A stretch of DNA of 64,000 nt, from positions 298,983 through 362,982 of the forward strand of contig CADEEV010000001.1 of assembly GCA_902826455.1 (NCBI GenBank), in the 5' to 3' direction. The notes under the pieces are model-generated. The model was not told the DNA's origin. It made no database searches and saw only the letters and a program-made list of their open reading frames with translations. The stretch comes from an uncultured Acidobacteriota bacterium (GTDB lineage Bacteria; Acidobacteriota; Vicinamibacteria; Fen-336). Positions within the stretch are counted from its first letter, which is position 1. Each line of letters begins with the position of its first letter. Shown one piece after another: positions 16,412 through 54,960 of the stretch. A program made the translations under genes and the position numbers.

Positions 16412-17974
16412 ATGCCGACGGTTTCGCAAATCCCGGAGTCAGAGCCCATGGACCGGCCCGCGCCCGCCTTCTTCGGTCGCTACCAGGTGCTCGAAGAGCT
16501 CGGCTCGGGCGCCATGGGCGTCGTCTACCTGTGCGTGGATCCGCGCCTCGCGCGGCCCGTGGCCGTCAAGGTCCTGAAGGAGTCGGAGTCCATGACGCCC
16601 GCGGACCGCGACCAGTACCACGCGCGCTTCCGGCGCGAGGCCGAGGCCGCCGGCAGTCTCAACCATCCGGGCATCGTCCAGGTCTTCGACATCGGTCCGT
16701 CGTACATGGTGATGGAGTACCTCGAGGGCCGCTCCCTCGCGGCGGCCTTCGCCGCGGGCGCGTCGTTCTCGGTGCGCGACATCGTGAATCTCGTGCAGCT
16801 CGTCGCCGACGCCATCGACCACGCCCACCGCAACGGCATCGTGCATCGCGACGTGAAGCCCGCGAACATCATGCTGACCGAGGGCGGCGGCGTGAAGGTC
16901 CTCGACTTCGGCGTGGCGCGCCTGCCGTCGTCGAATCTCACCGCGATCGGGAGTGTCGTCGGCTCGGTGCGCTACATGTCCCCCGAGCAGATGATGGGTC
17001 ACAAGGTCGACGGCCGCGCCGACGTCTTCTCGATGAGCGCCGTCGCCTACGAGCTGCTGACGGGACGCCCGCCGTTCCCGGGGAAGAGCGTCACCGACAT
17101 CGTCGCGCGCGTGGTCCACGGGCTCCACGTCCCGCCGCGTGAGGTCGACGCGCGGCTCCCCGAGGCGTTGAACGCCGTCTTCGCCCACGCCTTCGCGCCG
17201 CCGCCCCACAAACGCTTCGCGCGCGCCCTCGACCTCGCCCAGGAGCTGGCCACGGTCCTGGCCTCCGTGGCCGATCTCGAGATCCGCCATCCGGGCGAGG
17301 AGCCCGAGACCCTGCCGCCGCATGCCGCGGAGGCCGTGACGCCGCCCGCGGACGCGCCGCCTGCGACGCCCGCTCCGCCGCCGCCCACTCCGCCGCCGCC
17401 GGCGCCGGCGCGTCTCGTTCCCGAGGCGCCGACGACGCATCCCGAGGGGGTGCTGATCCTCGACAGCGATCCGGCCGGGGCCGAGGTGTTTCTCGACAGC
17501 AAGCCGGCCGGTCGTGCACCCCTCGACTCGGTCGACGTGTCGTTCGGCCGACACCTCCTGCGGATGGAGCTGCCGGGCCGCGAGAGCGTCTCGGCGACCA
17601 TCGAGGTGCGACCGGAGCGACCCCTCAAGATCGTGACGTTCACTCTGCCGCTGCCCGGCCCCGGGAGCGGCATGGTGCGGCCCGGTCAGCTCGTGAGCTT
17701 CGGGCCCGACGTGCTGCCGCCCGTGCGCATTTCCGGGCCGGTGCCGCGGCTCCCGGAGAGCGCTCGCGAGCGCGGCCTCGAAGGCACGCCCGCGGCGGAG
17801 GTGTGGGTGAGCGAGACGGGAGAGGTGTTCAACACGGCGCTCGTCGAGTCGGCGGGACGCGTCCTCGACGAGGCGCTCATCGCGGCCGTGTCACGCTGGC
17901 GCTTCGCGCCTGCGACACTGCGCGGCGTGCCGGTGTCGGTGCGGATCGTGATCCAGCACCATTTCCGGCGCTAG
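16412..17974 (+). CDS. Ser/Thr protein kinase fused to a Pro-rich linker, a PEGA domain and a TonB C-terminal domain
   Basis: Hanks kinase motifs (GSGAMGVVY, VAVK, HRDVKPANIM, DFG, SPE). A PEGA-like segment (GVLILDSDPAGAEVFLD), then a TonB_C signature (EVWVSETGEV...AAVSRWRFAPA). The true start is within the 859 aa track ORF at ATG 16412 (alternative 16448). Confidence 0.85.
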   Translation: MPTVSQIPESEPMDRPAPAFFGRYQVLEELGSGAMGVVYLCVDPRLARPVAVKVLKESESMTPADRDQYHARFRREAEAAGSLNHPGIVQVFDIGPSYMVMEYLEGRSLAAAFAAGASFSVRDIVNLVQLVADAIDHAHRNGIVHRDVKPANIMLTEGGGVKVLDFGVARLPSSNLTAIGSVVGSVRYMSPEQMMGHKVDGRADVFSMSAVAYELLTGRPPFPGKSVTDIVARVVHGLHVPPREVDARLPEALNAVFAHAFAPPPHKRFARALDLAQELATVLASVADLEIRHPGEEPETLPPHAAEAVTPPADAPPATPAPPPPTPPPPAPARLVPEAPTTHPEGVLILDSDPAGAEVFLDSKPAGRAPLDSVDVSFGRHLLRMELPGRESVSATIEVRPERPLKIVTFTLPLPGPGSGMVRPGQLVSFGPDVLPPVRISGPVPRLPESARERGLEGTPAAEVWVSETGEVFNTALVESAGRVLDEALIAAVSRWRFAPATLRGVPVSVRIVIQHHFRR

Positions 17975-18279: not shown

Positions 18280-19884
18280 CTACTGGGTGGCCTCGCGCCA
18301 GAGGGCCAGGAGGCGCGCTTCGTTGCCGTTCACCGCGAGTCCCCGACGCAGCTCGGCCTGGGCCGTCTCCTTGTCTCCGCGGTTGAGGGCGGCGCGGGCG
18401 TCCTTGAGCACGCCTTCGATGAGGAGCGAGGCCTCGGCTTCCTCGGCGATCTGCTGGGCCTCCTCGTTGCGCGGCTCACGCACGAGAACGGCGCGGGCCT
18501 CGGCGAGCGCCGCCGCGTAGCGCCCGGCGGCTAGCAGCGCATCGGCGCGCTCGACACGGCCGGCGGCCGGAGCCGGGATCGGCGACGAGCTCGCGCCGAC
18601 GTCGGGTCGCGGCCTCGCGAGGGTCGCCGCCGGCGCGCCCGGAAGGGTCGTCGCGGCGACGACCGGTGCCGCGGCGAGCGTCGTGGTCGGCGGCGGAGTG
18701 ATGGCCGTCGTGACCGGCGGCGCCGCCGCCAGCGACACGGGCGGCGGGGGCGTCGTCCGGCGGGACACGACGACGAAGCCGATCGCCAGGAGCGCCGCGG
18801 CCACGAGGCCCGCCGCGACCGGCCACGGCGATCGGGAGTGCCGCGCGCCGTCCGCCACCGCGAGCATCGGCTCCTCGGCGGTCCCCAGCACCTTCGGCGC
18901 TTCGAACTCCGGCGCCGCCGTGCCGAGGGCGATCGTCTCGCCGGCGAAGTCGTCCACGTGGGGGACCGGAGCCGGCAGAGGCGTGGGCGCCGGCCGCGGA
19001 ACGGCCGCGGTGCGTCCGGCCACCGAGATCTCCGAAGCGAGGGCCCAGTCCGCCGCGCCGCCCAGGTCCGCGAGGGCGCCGGCGAGGTCGGCCGACATGG
19101 TGCGGGCATCGGGATAGCGCGCGTCGGCCTCGCGCTGCAGCGCTCGAGCCAGGACGCCGCGCAGCCGGTCCCACTGGGAGCCCTTGGGAATGAGGCCGAG
19201 GTCGACGTCCTCGTGGGCGATCGAGTACATCAGCGACACCATCGAGTCGCCCGCATGGCCCTTCTCGCCGGTCACGAGCTCGTAGAGGATCAGGCCCACG
19301 GAGAACAGGTCGCTGCGGCCGTCGAGGTCGCCGGCCCGCACCTGCTCGGGCGACATGTAGTGGGGAGTGCCGACCACCATGCCCGCCGTCGTGACGCCGC
19401 CCGCCAGGCGTGCGACGCCGAAGTCCATGATCTTCGCCGGCCGGCGCCGCGGCAGGAAGACGTTCGAGGGCTTGATGTCGCGATGCACGATGCCGCGCTC
19501 GTGGGCGTGGCCGAGGCCCGCGAGGACCTGCAGCACGACCGGCAGCGTCGCCTTGGGATCGGGCCGAACACCGGCTTCGATCGCGCGCTGGAGGTCGAGG
19601 CCCTCGAGGAGCTCGAGAGCCATGAACGGCGAGCCCTGGTGGTCGCCGAGCTCGTAGATGGTGATGATGTTCGGGTGCTGGAGGCGGGCCGCGGCCTGGG
19701 CCTCGCGCTTGAAGCGCGCCCGGGCGTCGGCGTCGCCCCCGTGACCGGCCATCACCTTGAGCGCCACGGGCCGGTCGAGGATCTCGTCGACGCCGCGGTA
19801 GACGACGCCCATCGCCCCGCGTCCGAGCAGCTCCACCACCCGGAAGCGCCCGATCATCGGGGGCAACGGCGCCTCTCGCTTCAC
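18280..19884 (-). CDS. Ser/Thr protein kinase with one TM segment and a C-terminal TPR-like domain
   Basis: Kinase motifs (GRGAMGVVY, HRDIKPSNV, DFG, SPE); TM helix (VAAGLVAAALLAIGFVVV); helical C-terminal repeats. Confidence 0.85.
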   Translation of the reverse strand: MKREAPLPPMIGRFRVVELLGRGAMGVVYRGVDEILDRPVALKVMAGHGGDADARARFKREAQAAARLQHPNIITIYELGDHQGSPFMALELLEGLDLQRAIEAGVRPDPKATLPVVLQVLAGLGHAHERGIVHRDIKPSNVFLPRRRPAKIMDFGVARLAGGVTTAGMVVGTPHYMSPEQVRAGDLDGRSDLFSVGLILYELVTGEKGHAGDSMVSLMYSIAHEDVDLGLIPKGSQWDRLRGVLARALQREADARYPDARTMSADLAGALADLGGAADWALASEISVAGRTAAVPRPAPTPLPAPVPHVDDFAGETIALGTAAPEFEAPKVLGTAEEPMLAVADGARHSRSPWPVAAGLVAAALLAIGFVVVSRRTTPPPPVSLAAAPPVTTAITPPPTTTLAAAPVVAATTLPGAPAATLARPRPDVGASSSPIPAPAAGRVERADALLAAGRYAAALAEARAVLVREPRNEEAQQIAEEAEASLLIEGVLKDARAALNRGDKETAQAELRRGLAVNGNEARLLALWREATQ

Positions 19885-21091: not shown

Positions 21092-22654
21092 GTGCATGAA
21101 ACCCTCCGAGGCCGCACAATCTCGGCCGTGAGTTCCCGCCCCGGAACGATTCCCCTCGAGGCGCAGAGCGGCCTCGATCCCTGGAAGCGCGCGGAGCTGC
21201 CGGCGCCGCCCGACACGCGCGGGCTGCGCATCCTCGGCATCGTGGGTCCGGGGGCGATCGTGCTGGGGGCGTCGATCGGCAGTGGCGAGTGGCTCGTCGG
21301 CCCCTCGACCGTCGTCAAGTACGGCCTGTCGCTGCTCTGGGTCACGGCGCTGGCCGTGACGTTCCAGACGATCTTCAACACCGAGGTCGTGCGCTACACG
21401 CTCTACACCGGCGAGCCCGCCTTCACCGGCTTCATGCGCACGTGGCCCGGGTCGCGGTTCTGGGCGTGGGTCTACGCGTGCCTGTACTTCCTCCAGAACG
21501 GCTGGCCTGGCTGGGCAGGCGCCTCCGCGGGCGCCGTGTTCTTCCTCTGCTTCGCACGGCCCGCGACGGCGGCCGACGCCGGAACGATCTACGCGATCGG
21601 TGTCGTCGCCTATCTGCTGTGCGTCGCGATCCTGCTCCTGGGTGGTCGCCGCATCGAGCGCACCATGGAGCTCCTCAACTGGGCTCTCGTCATCGGCATC
21701 CTGGGTACCCTGACGTTCCTGTGCCTGCGCTTCGCGCCGCCGTCGCGCTGGCTCGCGGCGCTCACGGGCTTCGCCGCCTTCGACATGCCCTCCGGCCAGT
21801 TCCGCCTGCTGCCGCCGGGAGCCGACTGGTTCCTGATCGGAGCGTTCGCGGCGTACTCGGGATGCGGCGGCGTCACGAACATCACGCTCTCGAACTGGGC
21901 TCGCGACAAGGGCTACGGCATGGGCCAGGTCGTCGGCTACATCCCGACCCTCGTCGCCGGGCACAAGGTTCCTCTCGCTCACACGGGCAGCGTGTTCGAG
22001 CCCGATGCCGCGGCCCTCGAGCGCTGGCGCGGCTGGTGGCGCATCGTGCGGGCCGACCAGTGGGGTATTTTCTTTCCGGGAGCGCTGCTCGGCATGGCGC
22101 TCCCGGCCATCCTCTACACGGCCTCGATCCCGTCGGGCACGGACCTGCGCGGCCTGGCGATCGCCTCGGAGCTGGCCCGCGCCCTGGCCGAGCGCGGCGG
22201 CCGGCTCCTGCCCCTCGTGCTCGCGGTGCTGAGCGTGTGGATCCTGTTCAAGGCCCAGCTCGACATCATGGAGGCGACGGTGCGCTCCCTGACCGACATC
22301 CTCTGGAGCGCGAGCCCCCGGGTGCGCCACTGGCGCGGCGGCGACGTGCGCGCGGTGTACTTCACGGTCCTCGCGACCCTCGTGACGTGGGGCCTGTTCG
22401 CCATGACCCTGACCCAGCCGATCGTGCTGCTGCAGCTCGCCGCGAACGTCGCCGGCTGCGTCATGGTGCTGGGCGCCCTCCACATCCGCCACGTGAACGC
22501 GACGCTGCTGCCGCCCGCCCTCAGGCCCTCGGCCCTGCGCCAGGCGGCCCTCGTCGCCATGGCCCTCTTTTACGGCGTGTTCGTCTGGCTCTGGCTGATG
22601 GGCGGCTTCATGCCCGATCCGGCCAAGGGCTTCCTCTTCGTCCTGTTCCGCTGA
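21092..22654 (+). CDS. Nramp-superfamily transporter, a divergent member with a non-canonical first-helix motif
   Basis: 11-12 TM. GPGAIVLGASIGSGEW...LLWV aligns to the Nramp GPG...DPGN...LLWV region, but DPGN is replaced by GSGE. GTG start. Confidence 0.7.
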   Translation: MHETLRGRTISAVSSRPGTIPLEAQSGLDPWKRAELPAPPDTRGLRILGIVGPGAIVLGASIGSGEWLVGPSTVVKYGLSLLWVTALAVTFQTIFNTEVVRYTLYTGEPAFTGFMRTWPGSRFWAWVYACLYFLQNGWPGWAGASAGAVFFLCFARPATAADAGTIYAIGVVAYLLCVAILLLGGRRIERTMELLNWALVIGILGTLTFLCLRFAPPSRWLAALTGFAAFDMPSGQFRLLPPGADWFLIGAFAAYSGCGGVTNITLSNWARDKGYGMGQVVGYIPTLVAGHKVPLAHTGSVFEPDAAALERWRGWWRIVRADQWGIFFPGALLGMALPAILYTASIPSGTDLRGLAIASELARALAERGGRLLPLVLAVLSVWILFKAQLDIMEATVRSLTDILWSASPRVRHWRGGDVRAVYFTVLATLVTWGLFAMTLTQPIVLLQLAANVAGCVMVLGALHIRHVNATLLPPALRPSALRQAALVAMALFYGVFVWLWLMGGFMPDPAKGFLFVLFR

Positions 22655-22712: not shown

Positions 22713-23609
22713 GTGGGTCCGCGGTTGAAGACCTCGGTGCTGGACCGCATCGGCAACACGCCCCTGCTCCGTCTCGAGCTGCCGGGCCTGACGCGCCGGG
22801 TCGAAGTGTGGGGCAAGTGCGAATGGCACAACCCCGGCGGTTCCGTGAAGGACCGCACGGCCCTCTCCCTCGTGAACGAAGGCGAGCGCTCCGGCGCCCT
22901 GTATCGAGGCAAGACGATCCTCGACTCGTCGTCGGGGAACACGGCCGTAGGCCTCGCCCTCGTGGGACAGGCGAAGGGCCATCCCGTCGAGCTGCTCATG
23001 CCCGAGAGCGCCGCTGAACACCGCAAGGAGCGCTGCCGCGCGTACGGCGCCACCCTCACCTTCACCGACGCGTTCGCGGGCTCCGACGGAGCCATCCTCG
23101 AAGTGCGGCGCAAGGTGGCGGCCGAGCCGGAGCGCTACTTCTACGCGGACCAGTACCGCAATCCCGCGAACCCCCTGGCGCACTATCGCACCACGGGGCC
23201 CGAGATCTGGGAGCAGACGGGCGGCCGCGTCACGCATTTCGTCGCGGGCCTCGGGACCTCCGGCACGGTGATGGGCACGGGCCGCTTCCTGCGCGAGCGC
23301 AACCCCGCGGTGCGCGTGTGCGCGGTCGAGCCCGACGAGCCGTTGCACGGGCTCGAGGGCCTCAAGCACATGGCCTCGGCGATCGTGCCGGAGATCTACG
23401 ACCCGCGCGGCCACGACGAGCTCCTGACGATCGCGACCGAGGCCGCCTACGCCGAGCGCGAGAGCACACGGGCGCGCTCGGGCCTCGTCGTCGGCCATTC
23501 CGCGGCGGCGGCGATCGTGGCGGCCGGGCGCATCGCCCGGACGCTGACCGAGGGCGTGATCGTCGTCCTGTTGCCCGACCAGGGCGGCCACGAGGAGGGG
23601 CGCGCGTGA
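22713..23609 (+). CDS. cysM: Cysteine synthase (PLP-dependent; CysM type that uses a thiocarboxylated carrier)
   Basis: PLP-lysine region (GGSVKDR) and a GNT-type S(S)GNTA loop. Immediately followed by the mec and cysO homologues. Confidence 0.9.
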   Translation: MGPRLKTSVLDRIGNTPLLRLELPGLTRRVEVWGKCEWHNPGGSVKDRTALSLVNEGERSGALYRGKTILDSSSGNTAVGLALVGQAKGHPVELLMPESAAEHRKERCRAYGATLTFTDAFAGSDGAILEVRRKVAAEPERYFYADQYRNPANPLAHYRTTGPEIWEQTGGRVTHFVAGLGTSGTVMGTGRFLRERNPAVRVCAVEPDEPLHGLEGLKHMASAIVPEIYDPRGHDELLTIATEAAYAERESTRARSGLVVGHSAAAAIVAAGRIARTLTEGVIVVLLPDQGGHEEGRA

Positions 23610-24022
23610 GGATCCCCCGACAGGAAGCCGACGCCATGGTCGCGCGCGCCCTCGAGGGCTACCCCTTCGAGGTCTGCGGCGTGTTCCTCGGCCGGGGCGG
23701 CGACGTGCGGCGTGCCGTCGGCGTCGCGAACCGTGAGACCGAGCGGCCGCGCGTGCGCTATCAGATCGCCCCCGCGGATCTCATCCGTCTCCAGCGCGAG
23801 GGCGAGGCCGAAGGCCTGGAGATCGTGGGCTACTATCATTCCCATCCGGATCATCCCGCGCGGCCCTCGGAGACCGACCGGAGCGTGGCCGCGGGCGGGT
23901 TGTCCGACGGGGTATTCCACGTCGTGATCGGCGTCGAGCAGGGGATCCGGGGCACGCCCACGGCGTGGGTCTTCCGCGACGCGGATCAGGCGTTCCATGC
24001 CGAGCCGCTCGAGATCGAATAG
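23606..24022 (+). CDS. mec: JAMM/MPN+ metalloprotease Mec
   Basis: EVCGVFLG and the HSHPDHPARPSETD (H-x-H-x7-S-x2-D) JAMM zinc motif. The GTG start overlaps the cysM stop (GTGA). Confidence 0.85.
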   Translation: MRIPRQEADAMVARALEGYPFEVCGVFLGRGGDVRRAVGVANRETERPRVRYQIAPADLIRLQREGEAEGLEIVGYYHSHPDHPARPSETDRSVAAGGLSDGVFHVVIGVEQGIRGTPTAWVFRDADQAFHAEPLEIE

Positions 24023-24035
24023 GAGAAGAGAGTCC

Positions 24036-24314
24036 ATGGCGATTCGCGTCCAGGTTCCCGCGCCGTTGCGCTCGTTGACCGGTGGTGCCGCCGAGGTGAG
24101 CGTCGAGGCGAGCGACGTCGCGGGTCTCGTCGACGCCCTCGAGGCCTCCCACAAGGGCCTGCGCGATCGCCTGTACGACGCGAGCGGCGAGCTGCGCAGC
24201 TACGTGCGGGTGTTCGTGAACGAGGAGGACGTGCGCTTCCTGGGCGGCAAGGCGGCGCCGCTCAAGGCCGGTGACGTGGTCGCCATCGTGCCGGCGATCG
24301 CCGGCGGCCTCTAG
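24036..24314 (+). CDS. cysO: MoaD/ThiS-like sulfur carrier protein CysO
   Basis: 92 aa beta-grasp-sized protein ending ...AIAGGL (Gly-Gly plus one residue). AGGAGA RBS lies 8 nt upstream of the ATG. Confidence 0.8.
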   Translation: MAIRVQVPAPLRSLTGGAAEVSVEASDVAGLVDALEASHKGLRDRLYDASGELRSYVRVFVNEEDVRFLGGKAAPLKAGDVVAIVPAIAGGL

Positions 24315-24315
24315 T

Positions 24316-25224
24316 TCAGCGAGCGGGCTTCCGCGTGTACAGCAAGTCGTAGGCGACGCTCCACGTCTTGCCGCCGTCGGTCGAGTTCTCGCCGAGCTGG
24401 CGCACCGTGCCCTTCTGATCGAAGAAGGTCATCTTCTGCTGCGTCTTCGTGAGCTTCCCGTCGGGTCCCGGGATGAGGCTCTCGGCCAGATAGGCCATGG
24501 TGCCGTCAACGAAGCGGCCGTGGTACTCGGTGAGCGTCCCGCTCGAGTCCACCCAGGTCTGCCGCCACTCCTTCGTGGTGCTGTCCCAGATGTTGAAGCT
24601 CTTGCCCGTGACGCCTTGCGAGCCCGTCCAGTTCTCGTAGATGACGCAGTCGCCGAGCATGCGTTCCACGTGGCTCTCGCCCGCGAGCGCGCCGCTCGAC
24701 GTCACGTCCCAGTCTCCGATCCAGAAGTCGAACTGCCGGTGCTCGGGCGCGTACGCGCACGGCCGCGCGTTGCGGTCGGCCGCCTCGCGGACCGCGGCGA
24801 AGCGCTTGTCGGCGCGGAGCGGCGCGAAGTCGGCCTCGGTATCGAGCATGGAGACCTGGCCGAAGCCCCCGGCCGTGGCCTTGGTGAGCAGCGCGAGCGC
24901 GGCCTCCGTGTCGCCGGCACGCGCCAGGGCCCGGGCGGACCAGGCCTGCATCAAGGGTGGCGGAAACCCCAGGCTCGCGGCCGTCTCGAAGCGCGGCACC
25001 GCGTCCTTCGCGCGACCGAGAGCCAGCAGCGAGGCGCCGTGGCGAAACGCGTACATCGGGTTCTTCGGGGACTGGCTCGCGAGGGCCGCGTACGCGTCGG
25101 CCGCGCCCTTCCAGTCCTTCGCTTGATAGAGGCGATTCGCCTCGGAGGCATCCTCGGCACGGGCCGGCACACCCAACGTCATGAGACACACCACGATACC
25201 GAGACCGCCGATCCAGCGCTGCAT
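24316..25224 (-). CDS. Secreted TPR-like/DUF protein (hypothetical)
   Basis: 302 aa. Signal peptide, an N-terminal TPR-like helical region and a C-terminal conserved-looking beta domain. Confidence 0.7.
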   Translation of the reverse strand: MQRWIGGLGIVVCLMTLGVPARAEDASEANRLYQAKDWKGAADAYAALASQSPKNPMYAFRHGASLLALGRAKDAVPRFETAASLGFPPPLMQAWSARALARAGDTEAALALLTKATAGGFGQVSMLDTEADFAPLRADKRFAAVREAADRNARPCAYAPEHRQFDFWIGDWDVTSSGALAGESHVERMLGDCVIYENWTGSQGVTGKSFNIWDSTTKEWRQTWVDSSGTLTEYHGRFVDGTMAYLAESLIPGPDGKLTKTQQKMTFFDQKGTVRQLGENSTDGGKTWSVAYDLLYTRKPAR

Positions 25225-25905: not shown

Positions 25906-26355
25906 ATGAAAATTTCGCATCGGGGTCTCTACGCGCTCAAAGCGCTCGTTCACCTGGCCGCGGCCTACGAGCGCGGCCTCGTCAAGATCCACGAGATCGC
26001 CGAGCAGGAGGAGATCCCGGAGAAGTTCCTCGAGGGCATCCTCGTGACGCTCAAGAACGCGCGCGTCGTGAGCAGCCAGCGCGGCCGGGAGGGCGGCTAC
26101 CGCCTGCGCCGGCCTCCCGAGGAAATCGTCATGGGGGAAGTGGTCCGCATCGTGGACGGGCCGCTCGCGCCTTTCGGCGACGCCGTCGAGCTCCAGCATC
26201 GCATCCGCACCGAACCCCGGCAGGCCGGCCTGTTCCAGGTGTTCCTGGACGTGCGCAACGCGGCCTCCGCGATCCTCGACAAGACCACACTCGCCGACCT
26301 CGTCCAGCGCAACGCCCGTGTGCTGGCAGGTCGGGCCGTCAAGGGAGGGGCCTGA
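25906..26355 (+). CDS. Rrf2-family transcriptional regulator (CymR/IscR-like)
   Basis: 149 aa; Rrf2 wHTH (HRGLYALKALVHLA...IHEIAEQEEIPEKFLEGILVTLKNARVVSSQRGREGGYRL). Confidence 0.9.
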   Translation: MKISHRGLYALKALVHLAAAYERGLVKIHEIAEQEEIPEKFLEGILVTLKNARVVSSQRGREGGYRLRRPPEEIVMGEVVRIVDGPLAPFGDAVELQHRIRTEPRQAGLFQVFLDVRNAASAILDKTTLADLVQRNARVLAGRAVKGGA

Positions 26356-26376
26356 CGTCCGGCCGCGCTCGCTTCA

Positions 26377-26646
26377 ATGTCTATTACCCCGCTAGAGGTT
26401 AAAGACACTACGCCCGGCGAACCCCAGCCGGGGGAGAAGCGCGTCCTCGCCGCGCTGCGTGGCCTCCGCTTCGGCTCGGTCGAAGTGGTGGTCCACGACG
26501 GCCGCATCGTGCAGATCGAACGCCGCGAAAAGGTTCGCCTCGAAGACGCGGACCGCCGCTCGCCGGGCGACCGGAAGCGGGAACCGAACCACAACGGCCG
26601 GGCTGACCGGATCTCCGGAGGCGCCGTCCCGGAGACAGAAGAATGA
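26377..26646 (+). CDS. DUF2292 (YezD-like) small protein with a C-terminal extension
   Basis: Core LRGLRFGSVEVVVHDGRIVQIERREKVRL matches YezD/DUF2292. The stop overlaps the porin start (ATGA). Confidence 0.6.
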   Translation: MSITPLEVKDTTPGEPQPGEKRVLAALRGLRFGSVEVVVHDGRIVQIERREKVRLEDADRRSPGDRKREPNHNGRADRISGGAVPETEE

Positions 26647-27905
26647 AGACGTACACGACGTGGCTTGGCGCCGTTGCGGTCGGCTTCCTGCTGGCCAGCG
26701 GCACCGCCGGGGCTCAGGGCAAGCCAAAGGAAGAGGCGCCGAAGCCCGCGGGCGTCAAGGTCGCCGCCGGCTCGGACGGCTTCGCGTTCCAGTCCGAGAG
26801 CGGCGACTTCAAGGTCCAGATCCGTGGTCTCGTCCAGGCCGACGCCCGCTTCTACGCCTCGGACAAGGGCAAGCTGGGGACCGACACGTTCCTGCTCCGG
26901 CGCGCGCGGCCCATCGTCACCGGCTCGGCCGGCAAGTACTTCGAGTTCAACCTCACCCCCGACTTCGGCGGCGGCCAGGCCGTGATCCAGGACGCCTACG
27001 CGGACATCAAGTTCAACGCGGCCGCGCGCCTGCGCGCCGGCAAGTTCAAGCCGCCGATCGGCCTCGAGCATCTCCAGTCCGACCCGATCCTGCCCTTCGT
27101 GGAGCGCGCACTCGCCGCGAGCCTCGTCCCGAACCGCGACGTCGGGCTCCAGCTCTCGGGCGACCTGGGCGGCGGCGTCGTCTCCTACGCCGTGGGCGTC
27201 TTCAACGGCACGGCGGACGGGGGCAGCGTCGATCTCGACGTGAACGACGGCAAGGACGCGGTGGGCCGCTTGCTGTTCACGCCGTTCAAGAAGGGCCAGT
27301 CCCCCGCGAGCGGCCTGAGCTTCGGGATCGCGGGCTCGTCTGGCAAGCAGTCGGGCGCCCCGTCCGCGTATCGCACCGGCGGCCAGCTCTCGTTCTTCAG
27401 CTACGCCACGGGCGTCGTGGCCGAGGGCGATCGCAGCCGCCTCGCGCCTGAGCTCTCGTTCTTCCACGGGCCGGTCGCGATCATCGCGGAGTACGCCCGC
27501 TCGAAGGCCGGGATCAAGAAGACCGCCACCTCCGAGCGCCACTCGATCGAGGCCAGGGGCTGGCAGGCGACGGCGGGCTTCTTCCTCACGGGCGACACCG
27601 CGTCCTTCTCGAGCGTCAAGGTCAAGAAGCCCTTCGATCCGTCGAAGGGCCAGTGGGGCGGCTTCGAGCTCGTGGCCCGCGTCAACGCCCTCGAGATCGA
27701 CGACGACGCCTTCAGCCTGGGCCTCTCGGACATCACGAAGTCCGCGCGCAAGGCGACCGCCTGGGGCGTCGGATTCAACTGGTACGTCAACAACAACATC
27801 CGCCAGGCCATCTCGTACGAGCGGACCAGCTTCGATGGCGGCGCCGCCACGGGCGACCGGCCCGACGAGAACGCCCTCTTCATTCGCACCCAGCTTTCCT
27901 TCTAA
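26643..27905 (+). CDS. OprO/OprP-family anion-selective outer-membrane porin (in the sulfate-uptake operon)
   Basis: 420 aa; signal peptide; beta-barrel alternation; C-terminal F; family motifs shared with the oprP paralogue at 55042. Confidence 0.85.
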
Positions 27906-27927
27906 GGCTCGAAAGGAACCAAGGACC

Positions 27928-28935
27928 ATGAATTCGAATCGCAAGGCTTTCCTGGCCGTCGCGCTCGCCGTCGGCCTCGCACGCTCGGCATACGCCGCGG
28001 ACGCCACGCTCCTCAACGTCTCCTACGATCCCACCCGCGAGCTCTACTCGGAGTACAACGCCGCGTTCGCGAGGTACTGGCAGGGCAAGACCGGCAAGAC
28101 CGTGGAGATCCAGCAGTCCCACGGCGGCTCGGGCAAGCAGGCCCGCGCCGTGATCGACGGACTCGAAGCCGACGTCCTGACCCTCGCCCTCGCCTACGAC
28201 GTCGACGAGGTCGGCAAGAGCGGCCTGTTCGCCGCCGACTGGCAGAAGAAGCTCCCGAACAACAGCGCGCCCTACACCTCGACCATCGTGTTCCTCGTGC
28301 GCAAGGGCAACCCGAAGGGCATCAAGGACTGGAACGACCTCGTGAAGCCGGGCACCTCGGTCGTCACGCCCAACCCGAAGACCTCGGGCGGCGCTCGCTG
28401 GAACTATCTCGCGGCCTGGGGCTACGCGCTGCGTCAGCCCGGCGGCAACGAGCAGAAGGCCCGCGCGTTCGTCACGGCGCTCTTCAAGAACGTGCCGGTG
28501 CTGGACTCCGGCGCCCGCGGCTCGACGAACACGTTCGTGCAGCGCGGCATCGGCGACGTGCTGCTCGCGTGGGAGAACGAGGCCTACCTGTCGGTCAACG
28601 AGCTCGGCCCCGACAAGGTCGAGATCGTGACGCCGTCGGTGAGCATCCTGGCCGAGCCGCCCGTGGCGGTCGTGGACAAGGTCGTCGACAAGAAGGGCAC
28701 GCGCGCCGTGGCCCAGGCCTACCTCGAGTACCTGTACTCGCCCGAGGGCCAGGAGATCGCGGCCAGGCACTACTACCGCCCGCGCCTCGCGGCCGTGGCC
28801 CAGAAGTACGCGGGCCGCTTCGGCAAGGCGCCGCTGTTCACCATCGACGAGGTGTTCGGCGGCTGGGCGAAGGCCCAGAAGGCGCACTTCGACGACGGGG
28901 GAGTCTTCGACCAGATCTATCAGCCCTCGAAGTAA
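27928..28935 (+). CDS. sbp: Periplasmic sulfate/thiosulfate-binding protein
   Basis: Signal peptide; Sbp/CysP fold motifs ([29 protein letters not shown]). Start reassigned to MNSNRKAF. Confidence 0.9.
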
Positions 28936-28995
28936 ACGGAGAATCCGCAGGCTCTCGCGCCCGGCGGGCCTCGCGAAGCCTGCCGGGCCTCTTGT

Positions 28996-29853
28996 GTGTT
29001 GAGTGAGGTCACGGTCTTGTCCAGCGTCGTCCTGAAACGTCACAGCGTCCTCCCCGGCTTCGGGCTCACCGTGGGTTACACGCTGCTCTACCTGAGCCTC
29101 ATCGTCCTGCTGCCGCTCTCGACCCTCGCGTTCAAGAGCAGCTCCCTGGGCTTCGACGCGTTCTGGACCACGGTCAGCTCGGCGCGCGTCGTCGCGTCCT
29201 ACAAGCTGACGTTCGGCGCGTCGCTGGCTGCGGCCACGATCAACGCCTTCTTCGGCTTGATCGTCGCCTGGGTGCTCGCGCGCTACACCTTCCCCGGGCG
29301 CCGCCTCGTCGACGCCATCGTGGACCTGCCCTTCGCGCTGCCCACGGCCGTTGCGGGCATCGCGCTCACCACCCTGTACTCGGAGAACGGCTGGCTGGGC
29401 GCGCCCCTCGCGAGGATGGGCGTCAAGGTGGCGTTCACGCCCCTGGGCATCACCCTGGCCCTGACCTTCATCGGCCTGCCCTTCGTGGTGCGCACGCTGC
29501 AGCCCGTCATCGACGAGCTCGATCCCGAGCTCGAGGAGGCCGCGGCCAGCCTCGGCGCCTCGCGGGCCCAGACGCTGTTCCGCGTCGTGCTCCCGGCGCT
29601 GCTGCCGGCCTGGCTCACGGGCTTCGCCCTCGCCTTCGCGCGCTGCCTCGGCGAGTACGGCTCCGTCGTCTTCATCGCCGGCAACATGCCCATGCGCACC
29701 GAGATCACGCCGCTCCTGATCATCACGAAGCTCGAGCAGTACGACTATCCGGGCGCAACGGCCATCGCGGTGGTGATGCTCGTGGCGTCGTTCGTGCTGC
29801 TGCTCGGCATCAACCTCCTGCAGTCCTGGAGCGGCCGGAGGCTCGCGGCATGA
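28996..29853 (+). CDS. cysT: Sulfate ABC transporter permease CysT
   Basis: 6 TM; EAA-loop region ([21 protein letters not shown]). Confidence 0.9.
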
Positions 29854-30701
29854 AGCGGCGTGTGCTGACGGAGCCGAAGCCCGTGCGCGTGGCCCTGATC
29901 CTCGTGTCCCTCGCGTTCCTCGCCGTGTCCCTCGTGCTGCCCCTGGCGCTGGTGTTCGTCGAGGCCTTCTCCAAGGGTGCTGCCGCCTACGCCGCGGCGA
30001 TCCGCGAGCCCATGGCCCTGTCGGCCCTGAGGCTCACGCTGCTGACGGCCGCGATCGCGGTGCCGGCGAACCTGGTCTTCGGTCTCGCCGCATCGTGGGC
30101 CATCGCGAAGTTCGACTTCTGGGGCAAGAACGCCCTCATCACCCTCATCGACCTGCCGTTCGCCGTCTCGCCCGTGATCTCCGGGATGATCTTCATCCTG
30201 CTGTTCGGGCGACTCGGGACGTTCGGGCCGTTCCTCCAGGGCCACGACATCAAGATCGTCTTCGCGATTCCCGGCATCGTGCTCGCCACGGTCTTCGTGA
30301 CGTTCCCCTTCGTGGCCCGCGAGCTCATCCCTGTGATGCAGGCGAGCGGGTCCGAGGAGGAGGAGGCGGCCCGCGTGCTGGGCGCCAGCGGCTGGCAGCT
30401 GTTCTGGCGCGTCACGCTGCCCAACGTGAAGTGGGGGCTGCTCTACGGCGTGATCCTGTGCAACGCCCGGGCGATGGGCGAGTTCGGCGCGGTCTCCGTC
30501 GTGTCCGGCCACATCCGCGGCAAGACCAACACGCTGCCGCTCCACGTCGAGATCCTCTACAACGAATACCAGTTCCAGGCCGCCTTCGCGGCCGCGTCGC
30601 TCCTGGCGTTCCTGGCCCTCGTCACGCTGCTGGCCAAGAGCTTCATCGAGTGGCAGACCGGCCGGCGCGCGAGCGCCGGCTCCGTGGAGAACGAAGCATG
30701 A
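29850..30701 (+). CDS. cysW: Sulfate ABC transporter permease CysW
   Basis: 6 TM; EAA loop ([21 protein letters not shown]); ATGA-coupled to cysA. Confidence 0.9.
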
Positions 30702-31678
30702 GCATCGAAGCCCGCAACGTCACGAAGCGATTCGGCAGCTTCGTGGCCGTCGACGACGTGAGCCTCGTGTTTCCCGGGGGCGAGCTGACGGCGCTGCTCG
30801 GCCCGTCGGGCTCCGGCAAGACCAGCCTGCTGCGCATCATCGCAGGCCTCGAGCGCGCGGACGCCGGCCAGGTCCTCTTCGAGGGCGAGGACGCCACCGG
30901 GCGCGACGTGCGCCAGCGCGGCGTCGGCTTCGTGTTCCAGCACTACGCCCTGTTCCGGCACATGACGGTCTTCGACAACATCGCGTTCGGCCTGCGCGTG
31001 CGGCCGCGGGCACGCCGTCCCGGCGCCCCCGAGATCCGCGCGAAGGTCATGGACCTCTTGAAGCTGGTCCAGCTCGACTGGCTCGCGAACCGCTACCCGA
31101 GCGAGCTCTCGGGCGGACAGCGCCAGCGCGTGGCGCTCGCGCGCGCCCTGGCCGTCGAGCCCAAGCTTCTCCTGCTCGACGAGCCCTTCGGGTCCCTCGA
31201 CGCCAAGGTGCGCCTCGAGCTGCGGCGCTGGCTGCGCCGGCTCCACGACGAGATCAAGCTGACGAGCGTGTTCGTGACCCACGACCAGGAGGAGGCCCTC
31301 GAGGTGTCCGACCGTGTCGTCGTGATGAACAAGGGCCACGTCGAACAGGTCGGCTCGCCGCAGGAGGTCTTCGACCAGCCGAAGACCTCCTTCGTCATGA
31401 ATTTCCTCGGCCAGGTGAACGCCGTGAAGGGCGGCTACGTGCGGCCCCACGAGTTCGAGCTGGCGCGCTCGGCCGACGCGCCCGAGGGCTCGTGGGCCGA
31501 GGTCCGCCACATCCACATGGCGGGCGCCGTCGTGAAGCTCGAGCTCGTCGACGAGGCGAAGAACGTGCTGCTCGTCGAGATGAGCCGCGACCGCGCCGAC
31601 GCCCTCGCGCCCCGGGTCGGCGAGCGGCTGTTCGCGTGGCCGCGGCGGCTGCGGAGCTTCGAGGCCGCGACCGTCTAG
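30698..31678 (+). CDS. cysA: Sulfate ABC transporter ATP-binding protein CysA
   Basis: Walker [24 protein letters not shown] signature, Walker B LLLDEP, and a C-terminal TOBE-like domain. Confidence 0.9.
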
Positions 31679-32799
31679 CCCAGGGCCTGGGCCAGGTCGT
31701 CGATCAGATCTGCCTCGTTCTCGAGGCCGATCGACGCGCGCAGCAGCGTGTCGGGCGTCGTGGACGTCGGGCCTTCGCTCGAGCGCCGGTGCTCGATCAG
31801 GCTCTCGGTGCCCCCGAGGCTCGTGGCCACGGTGAACACCTTCAGGCGCGAGACGACGTCGACCGCGGCCGCGCGGCCGCCGCGGACGCGGAACGACAGC
31901 ATCCCGCCGAAGGCGCTCATCTGCCGCCGCGCCAGGGCGTGACCCGGGTCGGACGCGAGGCCCGGATAGTGGACGGCCTCGACGTTCGCATGCCCTTCGA
32001 GGGCCCGCGCGACGGCGAGGGCGTTCGCGGCATGGCGATCGACACGGCAGGCGAGGGTGCGCAGGCCGCGCAACACCAGCCAGGAGGCGAAGGGAGCCGC
32101 GACGCCCCCCAGCACCTTGCGGACGTGGAACGCCTCGTCGACCCAGGGGCCGCCCTTGCGGAACACGAGGGCGCCGCCGTGGACGTCGCCGTGGCCCCCG
32201 ATGAATTTCGTGGTCGAGTGCATCACGCAGTCGGCGCCGAGCTCGAGGGGCCGCTGCAGCACCGGCGTCGCGAAGGTGTTGTCGACGATCAGCGACGCGC
32301 CGCCGCCATGGGCGATGTCGGCGAGGGCTGCGATGTCCGCGATCTTCATGAGCGGGTTGGAGGGCGATTCGACGAACAGGAGCTTCGTCTCCTTCCGCAT
32401 CGCGCGCGCCACCGCGTCGAGGTCCGTCACGTCCACGAGGCTCGACGTGCCGCCCCAGCGCGGCAGGAACTCCGTCGCGATCGTGCGCACGTCGTAGTAG
32501 CCGTCGTCGGCCACGATGACGTGGGAGCCCGGCGGCAGCGCCTGCATCGCCGTGGCCGCCGCGGCCAGGCCCGACGCGAACGCGAGGGCCACCTCGCCCG
32601 ACTCCACCGCCGCGAGGGCGGTCTCGAGCCGGGCCTGGGTCGGGTTGCTCTCGCGGATGTAGTAGTGGTCGTGGATCCGCTCGGACTCCGGGCCGTGGAC
32701 GAACGTCGTCGACAGGTGGATCGGGGGCGCGACGGCCCCCGTATCGGGGTCGGGCTCGGCCCCGGCGTGGACTGCGATCGTCTCGAAGCGCTTCACCAT
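31675..32799 (-). CDS. Cys/Met-metabolism PLP enzyme (cystathionine gamma-lyase / gamma-synthase family)
   Basis: Start reassigned to [16 protein letters not shown]-lysine region ([12 protein letters not shown]); family-wide conservation. Confidence 0.85.
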
Positions 32800-33293
32800 G
32801 TGTCGCTCCCGGTGGGCGGAGGCCAGATCCCGAGCATCCGCCGCACGAAGGCCACCTGGCCGAGGTGGTAGCTGTTGTGGACGACCGTCTGGTGCAGCAC
32901 CTCGCGCACGGTCGAGCCCTGGTTCGCGTAGTTCTCGGTGTCGACGCTCGCCACCGTGCGCTCGAGCGCCGCCGGGTCGCGGCTCAAGGCCGCCATCTCG
33001 TCGAGCAGGACGCGGTAGCGGCCGAGCGTCGCGTCCCATTCGCCGGCTCGCGGCACGGCACCTGCCGGCCAGCTCTCCGCGGCATGCTCGGGATAGACCG
33101 GCGCCTGGCCGGCCATGCGCCGCAGCTCGTAGTCGATCCAGTAGTTGATGTGGGCCACGAGCTGGAAGATCGAGTTCGGCGCGCCTGCGGGCAGGGCGCC
33201 CGCGAGCTCGCTGCTCACGCCTTCGACGATCGCGCGGGCGTCGGTGTGAGCGCCGCCGCCGTAGATGAGCTCCGTCAGCACCGGTTCGTTCAC
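32793..33293 (-). CDS. DinB/DinB_2-family metal-dependent protein
   Basis: 166 aa; DinB-like four-helix histidine pattern (H..H..H); 7-bp overlap with the downstream PLP enzyme gene. Confidence 0.7.
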
Positions 33294-33313
33294 CGGGGCA
33301 GTATATTCGCGGG

Positions 33314-33709
33314 ATGACGAGACAGAACTTCGCTACCGGCACTCCCTGGGAGCCCATCGTGGGCTACTCGCGCGCCGTGCGCGTGGGCAACGTCGTGCAC
33401 GTGGCCGGCACGACCGCCACCGCCGAGGACGGGACGATCGTGGGTATCGGGGATGCCTACGCCCAGGCCATCCAGGTCCTGAAGAACATCGACAGCGCCT
33501 TGAAGCGCGCCGGAGCCCGGCTCGAGGACGTGGTCCGGACCCGCATGTTCGTCGTGAACATCGCGGCCGACTGGGAGAAGGTGGGCCGGGCCCACGGCGA
33601 GTACTTCAGCGCCATCCGGCCCGTCACGAGCATGCTCGAAGTCAAGGGTTTGATCTCGCCGGAGATCCTCGTGGAGATCGAGGCCGAGGCGATCGTCGTC
33701 TCCGACTAG
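33314..33709 (+). CDS. ridA: RidA (YjgF/TdcF) reactive enamine/imine deaminase
   Basis: 131 aa; RidA family signature (PAR...VEIEA region, conserved Arg). Confidence 0.9.
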
Positions 33710-33823: not shown

Positions 33824-34297
33824 ATGGCAACACTCTGCGCCAACCCCTGGGCGCGCCTCAGGTCTCCCTTCGACGTCGCCGCCGGAGTCCTGGGGGGCCG
33901 ATTGACGGCCCCGATCCTCTGGACCTTGTTCTGGGGTGGTAAACGGTTCTTCCAGATCCTCCGGGATCTGCAGCAGGTCCCCCGTCGCACGCTGGCGGAA
34001 CGCCTCCTCGAGCTCGAGAACGTCGGGCTCGTCGAGCGCCGCTTCGGACGTCTCGACAAGGACGGCGTCGAGTACGCGCTGACCGAGCTGGGTGAGTCGC
34101 TGAAGCCCATCCTCGCGGGCATGTACCACTGGGGACTGACGACGGCGGTTCGGGCCGATGCGGCCCGCCTCTTGACCGCCTGTGAACCGACCCGAGGTCC
34201 GAGAGCCGAGCACACCCGGCCCGACGAGGCTTGCGCCTCGCTCGAGGCTGCTGGCCGGGTCCCGTCGCCGTTCCCGGTGATCGAGACCCACGACTGA
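33824..34297 (+). CDS. HxlR-family wHTH transcriptional regulator
   Basis: C-x..GG.W...ILW.L motif (GGRLTAPILWTLFWGGKRFFQILRDL). Confidence 0.75.
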   Translation: MATLCANPWARLRSPFDVAAGVLGGRLTAPILWTLFWGGKRFFQILRDLQQVPRRTLAERLLELENVGLVERRFGRLDKDGVEYALTELGESLKPILAGMYHWGLTTAVRADAARLLTACEPTRGPRAEHTRPDEACASLEAAGRVPSPFPVIETHD

Positions 34298-34323
34298 CGT
34301 TCCTTTCGATCGGAGCAGTGCTC

Positions 34324-53373: not shown

Positions 53374-53388
53374 CCTAGACTCGGCGCC

Positions 53389-54699: not shown

Positions 54700-54960
54700 C
54701 GCGCCGGTCGTCCCCGCCGAGACCGGCCTCGGTGAGGATCTCGTCGATCACGGTGCGACCCGTATCGGCGCTTCCCGGCCCGAGGCGCATCCAGGCGGGA
54801 GGCCGTCCCGGCGGGGCGTGACGGCCACGCCGCCGCCGGGCGGCTCGTTGGCTGGCGAGACGTCCAAAGGGACGCTTCTGTCGAGACATGCTTGAGGGAA
54901 AGGTTAGGCCCGGGCCATGACGGTCGCGTGGCGCTCGCGCGATGGTCCGGCCACTCTTTC

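Follow-up and report, generated by a model that had tools for sequence, protein, structure and literature searches.

Carrier-dependent cysteine synthesis has its precedent in Mycobacterium tuberculosis, where CysO, CysM, Mec and MoeZR form the pathway (PMC3227635). Reviews still state that this route is restricted to Actinobacteria (PMC9547175). In 2006, Iyer, Burroughs and Aravind catalogued, by comparative genomics alone and without biochemistry, an operon type combining ThiS/MoaD, E1-rhodanese, JAB and cysteine synthase genes in Solibacter usitatus, Chloroflexus, Salinibacter, Rubrobacter, P. aeruginosa and R. palustris (PMC1779556, Table 1 row 4c). Two other systems are relevant here. JAMM proteases trim the residues that follow the Gly-Gly of the carrier in QbsE/QbsD and CxnE/CxnF (PMC5925218); these pairs feed secondary metabolites (thioquinolobactin for QbsD/QbsE, chuangxinmycin for CxnF/CxnE) and operate without a cysteine synthase. 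The CysM of E. coli/Salmonella (O-acetylserine sulfhydrylase B) is the best solved relative of the enzyme described below, with which it shares fold and PLP-binding residues.

The window, i.e. the whole 64-kb stretch of DNA analysed here, belongs to a soil-type Acidobacteriota (Vicinamibacteria) genome and carries adjacent cysM-like, JAMM and carrier ORFs on the + strand (22713-24314). With a probability of about 0.7, we read them as a sulfur-carrier-protein-dependent cysteine synthase cassette, similar to CysO/CysM/Mec of M. tuberculosis and built on a different CysM clade. In M. tuberculosis, Mec+(Rv1334)-CysO(Rv1335)-CysM(Rv1336), working with MoeZR (EC 2.5.1.113/3.13.1.6), likewise brings these three protein families together in one cluster. 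Likeness extends to the carrier (43% identical to CysO), to the intact JAMM motif, to the link with sulfur assimilation and to the activating enzyme (E1), presumably encoded away from the cluster in both; on the M. tuberculosis H37Rv map, moeZ lies away from Mec-CysO-CysM. Gene order differs (cysM-mec-cysO in the window, mec-cysO-cysM in M. tuberculosis), and the window cassette lacks the adjoining ClpS and helical-protein genes that mark the actinobacterial type (PMC1779556, row 4d).

The cassette falls in the same class and the same phylum as operon type 4c and for the most part re-identifies it; it is real but fairly ordinary. The original prediction had pointed to the occurrence outside Actinobacteria; this is not new, the 2006 catalogue already listing the operon type in Acidobacteria among other phyla (PMC1779556). 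Genomic context, non-actinobacterial recurrence and fusions support the prediction's proposal that cysteine is made via a CysO thiocarboxylate outside Actinobacteria.

Layout of the cassette and its surroundings

The features considered are the following:

21092..22654, + strand: Nramp-family-like membrane transporter, 520 aa (NCBIfam NF037982 Nramp_1, 169 bits vs cutoff 50)
22713..23609, + strand: CysM-type PLP-dependent cysteine synthase, 298 aa (Pfam PALP, E=3e-63)
23346..23372, + strand: clade signature HGLEGLKHM of the CysM-type enzyme, residues 212-220 (alignment)
23606..24022, + strand: JAMM/MPN+ zinc metalloprotease, Mec-like, 138 aa (Prok-JAB, E=1.4e-23)
23837..23878, + strand: JAMM metal-binding motif HSHPDHPARPSETD, H78-S-H80-x7-S88-x2-D91 (regular-expression match on translation)
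24036..24314, + strand: CysO-like ubiquitin-fold sulfur-carrier precursor, 92 aa (Pfam ThiS, E=6e-16)
25906-26355, + strand: Rrf2/CymR-like regulator (CymR 97 bits, below cutoff)
26377-26646, + strand: OscA-like protein (56 bits, below cutoff)
26643-27905, + strand: O/P-type porin (Pfam/NCBIfam match)
27925-28935, + strand: Sbp (557 bits)
28996-29853, + strand: CysT (415 bits)
29850-30701, + strand: CysW (406 bits)
30698-31678, + strand: CysA (CysA-type, 387-402 bits)

The three cassette ORFs announced by the original prediction were all found at their coordinates on the + strand. Translational coupling had been claimed throughout: it stands for cysM and the JAMM gene, where GTGA combines the cysM stop with the JAMM start in a 4-nt overlap, and fails for the JAMM and carrier genes, which are separated without overlap by 13 nt containing an RBS-like AGGAGAAGAGAG. 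The overlapping GTG start gives the 138-aa JAMM and, with the same 4-nt overlap, is the form taken by gene callers in the relatives L003, L084 and L085. An alternative ATG at 23636, yielding 128 aa, was taken by one gene caller in L001, whose DNA is identical.

The Nramp-like gene, whose product has no Pfam match, lies 58 nt upstream of cysM on the same strand and is also directly upstream of cysM in L084 and L085. No terminator-like site was found between the two genes, and the Nramp-like gene could belong to the transcription unit as its fourth gene; the transporter may have been recruited into it in the window's lineage. Scanning for promoters and terminators around the cassette gave nothing informative, and the Rfam scan of the window returned no riboswitch and no other RNA family.

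A sulfur-starvation/sulfate-uptake locus (25906..31678, +) begins 1.6 kb downstream of the cassette; the sulfate-uptake genes expected there were identified by Pfam/NCBIfam as those of Sbp, CysT, CysW and CysA. The earlier assignment to Acidobacteriota agrees with the organism-named close homologues of the window FumC (83-85% identity), all of them labelled 'Vicinamibacteria bacterium'. As to the markers invoked for it, the CarboxypepD_reg TonB-dependent receptor is present (34186-37182) and the TIGR03436 VWFA protein is absent from the ~40 window ORFs scanned.

The three cassette proteins

The PALP domain of the CysM-type enzyme spans residues 10-289 and is full length (Pfam). The PLP lysine is K46 in GSVKDR, the Asn loop SSGNT occupies positions 73-77, the PLP-phosphate loop GLGTSGT positions 179-185, and Ser263, facing PLP N1, lies in GHSAA (261-265). 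With all key residues present, the protein is predicted to be a fold-type II PLP cysteine synthase of the CysK/CysM superfamily. Its top NCBIfam family is TIGR01138 cysM (298 bits, under the equivalog cutoff of 394), and its homologues are annotated by JGI as cysteine synthase B or S-sulfocysteine synthase. Among PDB entries, E. coli CysM is the best match (218 bits), M. tuberculosis CysM scoring 170 bits. The original prediction had taken a best match to an ordinary O-acetylserine sulfhydrylase as evidence against itself; such a match was formally obtained and is non-discriminating, because M. tuberculosis CysM itself matches E. coli CysM at 220 bits.

Identity amounts to 37% with M. tuberculosis CysM (the sequence used agrees with PDB 3dwg_A at every residue) and to 38% with E. 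coli CysM. In a neighbour-joining tree the cassette-linked CysMs form their own clade, apart from M. tuberculosis CysM, and E. coli CysM is likewise in a different clade. From identity and tree position we judge that the enzyme is not an Rv1336 orthologue and belongs to a distinct clade. This clade has the motif consensus HG(L/M)EG(L/M)KH, and we know of no characterised member of it. Within the motif, K218 aligns with Arg220 of M. tuberculosis CysM and with Arg210 of E. coli CysM. Arg220 is reportedly implicated in recognising the phosphate of O-phosphoserine; this position alone does not set specificity, because E. coli CysM also has an Arg there. The substrate-determinant check suggested earlier therefore ends with a Lys at the Arg220 position, the distinction between O-phosphoserine and O-acetylserine not being readable from sequence. 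The window enzyme also ends ~25 residues before M. tuberculosis CysM, and its PDB alignment with 3dwg/3dki stops at query residue 272. The C-terminal tail, absent here, is said to shield the aminoacrylate in the M. tuberculosis enzyme and to influence the choice of sulfur donor. A frameshift as the source of the short C-terminus was rejected, because the identical protein (P0001) occurs in independent assemblies (a 538-kb NCBI contig and two Logan assemblies) and relatives are of similar length.

In the JAMM protein, the metal-binding motif aligns with solved JAMM proteins, and the catalytic Glu22 lies upstream of it, in YPFEVCG; the catalytic and zinc motif, within its Prok-JAB domain, is intact. 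The best PDB match is 2kcq_A (Mov34/MPN/PAD-1 family, 5.8e-18), and among NCBIfam families 'desampylase' ranks first with 78 bits (cutoff 130).

The carrier matches M. tuberculosis CysO best among PDB entries (3dwg_C, 69.4 bits, 2.6e-18, 43% identity end to end over 91 residues). The Amycolatopsis carrier 4n6e_B reaches 69 bits, the nearest MoaD 33 bits and ThiS 15.7 bits. We classify it as CysO-type, not MoaD- or ThiS-type, and the possibility that the small protein is a MoaD, which the original prediction had wanted checked, was settled in favour of CysO (69 vs 33 bits). A role as MoaD for molybdopterin was rejected because the carrier is CysO-like and neither MoaE nor Moco genes are adjacent. 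The top NCBIfam family is SAMP1 (54 bits, under the cutoff of 60).

M. tuberculosis CysO ends in GG; the window carrier has an extra residue and ends in AIAGG-L, with Gly-Gly (residues 90-91) at nt 24303-24308, Leu92 at 24309-24311 and the stop at 24312-24314. Carriers of close relatives are conserved through AIAGG and then diverge completely (L, R, RR, RSH, TSPSSLGS). Unconstrained tails of this kind would be expected if the segment is a propeptide that is cleaved off. Because Leu92 comes after the GG, the latter would be usable for adenylation/thiocarboxylation only once trimmed. An adjacent JAMM and the variability of the tails in relatives make trimming of Leu92 plausible. Maturation of the carrier, by putative cleavage after GG, is probably a further function of the JAMM, since the post-GG tails of relatives are hypervariable or replaced by in-frame E1 fusions. 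The arrangement recalls QbsD/QbsE and CxnF/CxnE, in which a carrier with post-GG residues also has its JAMM encoded next to it; the window carrier differs in having a tail of just one Leu, and the freeing of cysteine would be an additional task for its JAMM.

Linkage, fusions and the activating enzyme

Homologous cassettes, usually with a ThiF+rhodanese E1, were found in Acidobacteriota, Chloroflexota, Gemmatimonadota, Rubrobacteraceae, Thermodesulfobacteriota and an archaeon. Named genomes with the gene set are Bryocella, Granulicella, Thermoanaerobaculia, Nitrolancea, Anaerolineae, Gemmatimonadetes, Rubrobacteraceae, Caldimicrobium and a Thermoplasmata archaeon. The peptide-pattern scan of genome contigs missed the closest genomes, its best match being 58% identical. 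Among the genome loci retrieved, Mec, CysO or MoeZ lies at most 8 kb from CysM in 16/20 motif-positive loci vs 3/66 motif-negative ones (ThiF only; Fisher p=4e-11), the motif-negative set consisting of the other CysK/CysM genes among these loci. When Mec or CysO alone are counted, the figures are 14/20 and 0/66 (p=9e-12). The proteobacterial CysM loci L024, L033, L042 and L064 have no JAMM, carrier or E1 genes, and the gene of E. coli CysM is unlinked to any of these. The window CysM is linked to cysO and mec genes, and this linkage, E1 included, is conserved across phyla. In soil metagenomes the cassette occurs very frequently, all 8000 candidates scored (hence at least 8000) matching at E<=1e-20.

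Fusions join the same partners. A natural CysM-JAMM fusion (P0031, 429 aa) has three database members, and in-frame CysO-MoeZ (carrier-E1) fusions occur in six loci. For the predicted hydrolysis of the carrier-Cys adduct by the JAMM (EC 3.13.1.6), the support consists of synteny and of the fusion P0031.

The E1 was reported by the original prediction as missing from the window. We confirm this: no ThiF-type E1 was detected in the 64 kb at E<=1e-3 with a cassette-linked MoeZ as phmmer query and every six-frame ORF of 50 aa or more as target. The three closest relatives likewise have none at 10 kb or less from the cassette, and a search of the protein database with the L003 E1 gave no E1 on the 538-kb contig among the best 120 matches listed. 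L003 (CysM 71% identical) is the nearest relative with an E1 in cis; its ThiF+rhodanese, PALP, Prok-JAB and ThiS proteins are encoded by four contiguous overlapping genes. Type 4c is matched exactly by L003, L013, L015, L017 and others; three of its four genes are present in the window, from which the E1 is absent, and in the window, L084 and L085 the Nramp-like gene stands upstream in place of the E1. The E1 gene has, to judge from these gene maps, left the cluster in the window and its closest relatives. The E1s encoded in cis in relatives carry rhodanese domains and also score against the model of the SAMP-activating E1 UbaA.

Proposed pathway and alternative readings

In the carrier-dependent pathway that we propose, the 92-aa carrier would be made as a GG-Leu precursor, from which the JAMM would remove Leu92 and expose Gly91. 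A ThiF+rhodanese E1 of MoeZ type, encoded elsewhere in the genome, would adenylate Gly91 and convert it to the thiocarboxylate. The CysM-type enzyme would form an aminoacrylate from activated serine (O-phosphoserine or O-acetylserine), and attack by the carrier thiocarboxylate would give a carrier-cysteine adduct, rearranging to a Gly-Cys peptide bond. The same JAMM would then hydrolyse this bond to yield L-cysteine and the regenerated carrier. What the sequences themselves show is that the three proteins are of the named families and intact, that their genes are linked to one another and to the E1 across phyla, that fusions join them and that the tails after GG vary freely; we infer every chemical step by homology, from the reconstituted M. 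tuberculosis pathway and from processing of the QbsD/QbsE type. Several points count against the proposal. The best solved relative, E. coli CysM, is an O-acetylserine/thiosulfate enzyme; identity to M. tuberculosis CysM is only 37%, with Lys for Arg220, no C-terminal tail and no E1 located; and the sub-cutoff SAMP1/desampylase names of the small proteins are compatible with a role in protein conjugation.

The alternative that survives best, although we regard it as unlikely, is a conventional CysM (O-acetylserine sulfhydrylase B/S-sulfocysteine synthase) using free sulfide or thiosulfate, with the JAMM and carrier serving another sulfur transfer (molybdopterin, tRNA thiolation or thiamine). 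E. coli CysM as the best solved homologue (218 bits) speaks for it, but M. tuberculosis CysM is equally E. coli-CysM-like. The NCBIfam name cysM, the JGI labels and the sulfate/thiosulfate-type ABC importer nearby also favour it; against them stand the tight, clade-specific linkage to carrier genes across phyla, the CysM-JAMM fusion proteins and a carrier nearest to CysO, not to MoaD/ThiS. Moreover, no MoaE, ThiG or tRNA-thiolation genes were seen beside the cassette in the window or in close relatives.

Carrier and JAMM could instead be a ubiquitin-like conjugation/deconjugation pair of the archaeal SAMP/HvJAMM1 type, the cysteine synthase being its target or an unrelated neighbour. We hold this to be quite improbable. 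The SAMP1 and desampylase families, which would suggest it, are both matched below cutoff (54 bits vs 60 and 78 vs 130), and the CysO match is stronger; the cis E1s of relatives score against the UbaA model but have rhodanese domains, typical of sulfur transfer; and the pair is linked to a cysteine synthase and sulfur genes rather than to genes of E2-like or proteasome type. Delivery of sulfur to a product other than cysteine, either a thio-secondary metabolite or homocysteine (thioquinolobactin, 2-thiosugar, chuangxinmycin, HcyS/MetY), has very little to recommend it: JAMM and carrier pairs with post-GG tails do serve such pathways (PMC5925218), but the PLP enzyme is CysM-type and not MetY-type, no NRPS, CoA ligase, P450 or sugar-enzyme neighbours are annotated in the window or close relatives, and the abundance of the cassette in soil metagenomes is as expected of primary metabolism.

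Returning to the carrier-dependent cysteine cassette, a broader reading can be put forward tentatively, at somewhat less than even odds: this CysM clade, the post-GG-extended or E1-fused carriers and an obligatorily bifunctional JAMM may together constitute a biochemically uncharacterised, soil-abundant cysteine pathway, distinct from the E. coli and M. tuberculosis enzymes. Such a pathway would be placed in Acidobacteriota, Chloroflexota, Gemmatimonadota and some archaea, and its JAMM would combine precursor processing, like that of ubiquitin-processing enzymes, with cysteine release.

If the cassette works as proposed, the statement that the carrier route is found in Actinobacteria only (PMC9547175) would be corrected. 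In many abundant soil bacteria, at least some of the cysteine would then arise via a protein-bound thiocarboxylate and not from free sulfide. In M. tuberculosis, the carrier-dependent cysteine route has been linked to oxidative-stress tolerance. The cassette would also provide a simple system in bacteria for studying how a JAMM protease processes ubiquitin-like precursors.

Cassette genes and host

The three genes claimed by the original prediction were all found at 22713-24314 on the plus strand:

22713-23609 (+), cysM-like PLP enzyme, 298 aa; Pfam PALP full-length, E=3e-63
23606-24022 (+), JAMM (Mec-like) protease, 138 aa; Prok-JAB, E=1.4e-23
24036-24314 (+), CysO-like carrier, 92 aa; Pfam ThiS, E=6e-16

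The cysM stop overlaps the GTG start of the JAMM gene (GTGA), and the 13 nt between JAMM and carrier genes contain an AGGAG-type ribosome-binding site. The 138-aa overlapping form of the JAMM is also called in the relative loci L003, L084 and L085; in L001, identical in DNA, it is called from an ATG at 23636, giving 128 aa. The expected JAMM motif is present as H78-S-H80-x7-S88-x2-D91, together with Glu22. For the cysM-like protein, the top NCBIfam family is TIGR01138 cysM; its 298 bits fall short of the 394-bit equivalog cutoff. The carrier is the last gene of the unit, since a convergent TPR/DUF1579 gene (24316-25224, -) ends 1 nt from its stop (24314-24318), a gap too small for an intergenic terminator. 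A search around the cassette for an Rfam family, a promoter-like site or a convincing terminator found none.

The predicted Acidobacteriota host was borne out by FumC, whose organism-named close homologues (83-85% identity) are all 'Vicinamibacteria bacterium', a class of this phylum. A single NCBI contig of 538,330 bp encodes 100% identical copies of both FumC and CysM. G+C content is about 70%, and the outer-membrane proteins encoded in the window include a porin of the O/P type as well as a CarboxypepD_reg-containing TonB-dependent receptor. The latter had been put forward as a host marker; the other proposed marker, TIGR03436 VWFA, was not found in any scanned ORF of the window.

A CysM clade linked to carrier genes

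The original prediction took a best match to an ordinary O-acetylserine sulfhydrylase as evidence against it. Among solved structures such a match was formally obtained (E. coli CysM, 218 bits; M. tuberculosis CysM, 170 bits), yet it is non-discriminating, because M. tuberculosis CysM itself, its query sequence first matched residue for residue to 3dwg_A, aligns with E. coli CysM at 220 bits. Identity of the window enzyme is 37% to the former and 38% to the latter. Its catalytic residues are intact (K46, SSGNT loop, GLGTSGT loop, Ser263).

We then aligned the enzyme with M. tuberculosis and E. coli CysM and with 33 homologues, drawn from named genomes and from two retrieved contigs. Cassette-linked CysMs have in common an HG(L/M)EG(L/M)KH signature with a one-residue insertion, and all those aligned lack the ~25-residue C-terminal tail of M. 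tuberculosis CysM. Neighbour joining placed them in a single clade, distinct both from M. tuberculosis CysM and from the clade of proteobacterial CysMs. The motif lysine (K218 in the window) aligns with Arg220 of M. tuberculosis CysM and Arg210 of E. coli CysM, so that positive charge is retained at the Arg220 position; E. coli CysM uses O-acetylserine yet has Arg there, so sequence alone does not tell O-phosphoserine from O-acetylserine as the acceptor substrate.

Linkage was counted in 80 genome loci, scoring a Mec, CysO or MoeZ homologue within 8 kb of the CysM gene. Such a neighbour accompanied 16/20 motif-positive genes vs 3/66 motif-negative ones (Fisher p=4e-11), the latter three having ThiF only. 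With Mec or CysO alone as neighbour, the counts were 14/20 and 0/66 (p=9e-12). Of the four motif-positive exceptions, three are on contigs whose downstream flank is shorter than 1.5 kb. P0031, a homologous protein of 429 aa with three database members (JGI, NCBI and ENA contigs), is a natural in-frame CysM-JAMM fusion; its CysM part belongs to the cassette clade (73% identical to window CysM), which strengthens the link between protease and synthase. Beside these data, a conventional sulfide- or thiosulfate-using CysM next to an unrelated carrier pair appears less likely, even with homologues annotated by JGI as S-sulfocysteine synthase.

In a Terracidiphilus MAG (L021:9836-10915), a cassette-clade CysM has Ile for the motif Lys (HGLEGLIH). 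Its only cassette-like neighbour is a rhodanese-like fragment, with neither JAMM nor carrier nearby; this CysM could be a paralogue that is decaying or has taken on another role.

Carrier tails, fusions and the activating enzyme

A molybdopterin MoaD, the identity named as adverse for the carrier, was not what we found: the protein is CysO-like, scoring 69 bits against both M. tuberculosis CysO (3dwg_C) and an Amycolatopsis ThiS/MoaD carrier (4n6e_B) vs 33 bits against the best MoaD structure, and is 43% identical to CysO end to end (BLASTP). The top solved relative of the JAMM is 2kcq_A, of the Mov34/MPN/PAD-1 family. The top NCBIfam names of the two small proteins, SAMP1 and desampylase, would fit a SAMP-like conjugation system; both are sub-threshold, and this reading is less likely.

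The window carrier ends in AIAGG-L. Carriers of close relatives are near-invariant through AIAGG and then end in L, R, RR, RSH, TSPSSLGS or longer tails; more distant loci have Q, R, RAM, SSCCR, CCRPSDGCCR or VAVVR. Among carriers of genome loci only that of Caldimicrobium ends in GG, as does M. tuberculosis CysO. In six loci of different phyla (Acidobacteriota, Gemmatimonadota and one Thermoplasmata archaeon), the carrier continues in frame after the GG motif into a MoeZ-type (ThiF+rhodanese) activating enzyme, or E1:

L007:10500-12119, carrier-E1 fusion
L016:6260-7900, carrier-E1 fusion
L018:4658-6976, carrier-E1 fusion
L020:11072-12571, carrier-E1 fusion
L025:11336-12832, carrier-E1 fusion
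L031:11362-12855, carrier-E1 fusion

These fused carriers would need cutting to be released, with the adjacent JAMM the presumed cutter. Judged from sequence, conservation up to GG followed by an unconstrained tail is the pattern expected for a removed propeptide, and the adjacent JAMM is the obvious candidate for processing the precursor. Processing of post-GG carrier tails has precedents in QbsD/QbsE and CxnF/CxnE (PMC5925218).

In L003 (CysM 71% identical), ThiF+rhodanese, CysM, JAMM and carrier are four contiguous overlapping genes; named homologues of its E1, among the matches listed, are from Vicinamibacteria. The same gene set occurs in Acidobacteriota (Bryocella elongata, Granulicella, two Thermoanaerobaculia MAGs, three other MAGs), in Chloroflexota (Nitrolancea hollandica, an Anaerolineae MAG), and in a Gemmatimonadetes MAG, a Rubrobacteraceae MAG, Caldimicrobium and a Thermoplasmata archaeon. 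The 64 kb of the window hold no ThiF-family ORF, and the three closest relatives (CysM 84%, 74% and 73% identical), which retain the three-gene form, have no E1 within 10 kb of the cassette. An E1 in trans would thus be the normal state of this sub-lineage. On the M. tuberculosis H37Rv map, moeZ is likewise remote from the mec-cysO-cysM cluster. The rhodanese domain is N-terminal (PRK08762-type) in the E1 of L003 (L003:8820-10004), the closest cis-complete cassette, and C-terminal (MoeZ-type) in those of L013 and L007.

The proposed CysO-type cysteine cassette is supported by the CysO-like carrier, the intact motifs, the clade linkage, the fusions and the recurrence across phyla. In the cycle we infer, the JAMM would cut Leu92 from the carrier, a step modelled on the tail pattern and the Qbs and Cxn precedents. 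Gly91 would then be adenylated and thiocarboxylated by a MoeZ-type E1 encoded elsewhere, CysM would make the aminoacrylate and capture the carrier thiocarboxylate, and the JAMM would hydrolyse the Gly-Cys bond to release cysteine, by analogy with the reconstituted M. tuberculosis pathway (summarised in PMC3227635). Sulfur supply to another product is less likely.

Neighbourhood and earlier descriptions

The surroundings contain the following features:

16439-17974 (+), Ser/Thr protein kinase with PEGA and C-terminal TonB_C domains
18280-19884 (-), second kinase, with a long Pro/Ala-rich linker
21092-22654 (+), divergent Nramp-family-like transporter; NCBIfam Nramp_1, 169 bits, no Pfam match
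25906-31678, sulfur-starvation/sulfate-uptake locus, preceded by dtd
31675-33709, directly after cysA: cystathionine-gamma-synthase-family PLP gene (-), DinB/MST-like gene (-), RidA-family deaminase (+)
53374-63966 (+), phosphate-starvation cluster: alkaline-phosphatase/PhnA-like hydrolase, porin, PstS, PstC-like permease (unusually long, 791 aa), PstB, PhoU, one further gene

The Nramp-like gene, 58 nt upstream of cysM, is possibly transcribed together with the cassette. Its position is kept in L084 and L085, which are without the cis E1 of other relatives. Two of the three closest relatives share the upstream synteny (ferredoxin, Ser/Thr kinase, lactonase, 510-aa Nramp-like transporter), the transporter gene directly preceding cysM.

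The sulfate-uptake locus announced downstream is indeed there, with Sbp, CysT, CysW and CysA. Before this ABC importer, 25906-27905 (+) encodes three proteins: a regulator resembling Rrf2/CymR, a small sulfur-starvation protein of OscA-like (DUF2292) type, and a 'phosphate-selective' porin of the O/P type. This arrangement suggests that the outer membrane has an anion channel reserved for sulfate. In L085, which has no sulfate locus, dtd is followed directly by transsulfuration, DinB, RidA and FumC genes; the adjacency of that locus to the cassette is therefore lineage-specific, and in the lineage of the window it appears to have been inserted.

The overall novelty of the cassette is low. It belongs to an operon class already described bioinformatically: type 4c, with examples in Solibacter usitatus (Acidobacteria), Chloroflexus, Salinibacter, Rubrobacter, P. 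aeruginosa and R. palustris, is listed apart from the actinobacterial type 4d with ClpS, which includes M. tuberculosis (Iyer et al. 2006, PMC1779556). EC 2.5.1.113 and 3.13.1.6 are routinely annotated outside Actinobacteria in MAG studies (PMC12717711); a 2022 review has mycobacterial CysM 'found only in actinobacteria' (PMC9547175). Enzymology is demonstrated for the sister actinobacterial type only. Mildly new are the motif-defined CysM clade with its statistical linkage to carrier genes, the presence in nearly all carriers of sequence beyond GG, as a tail or a fused E1, and, in this Vicinamibacteria sub-lineage, the Nramp-like gene in place of a cis E1.
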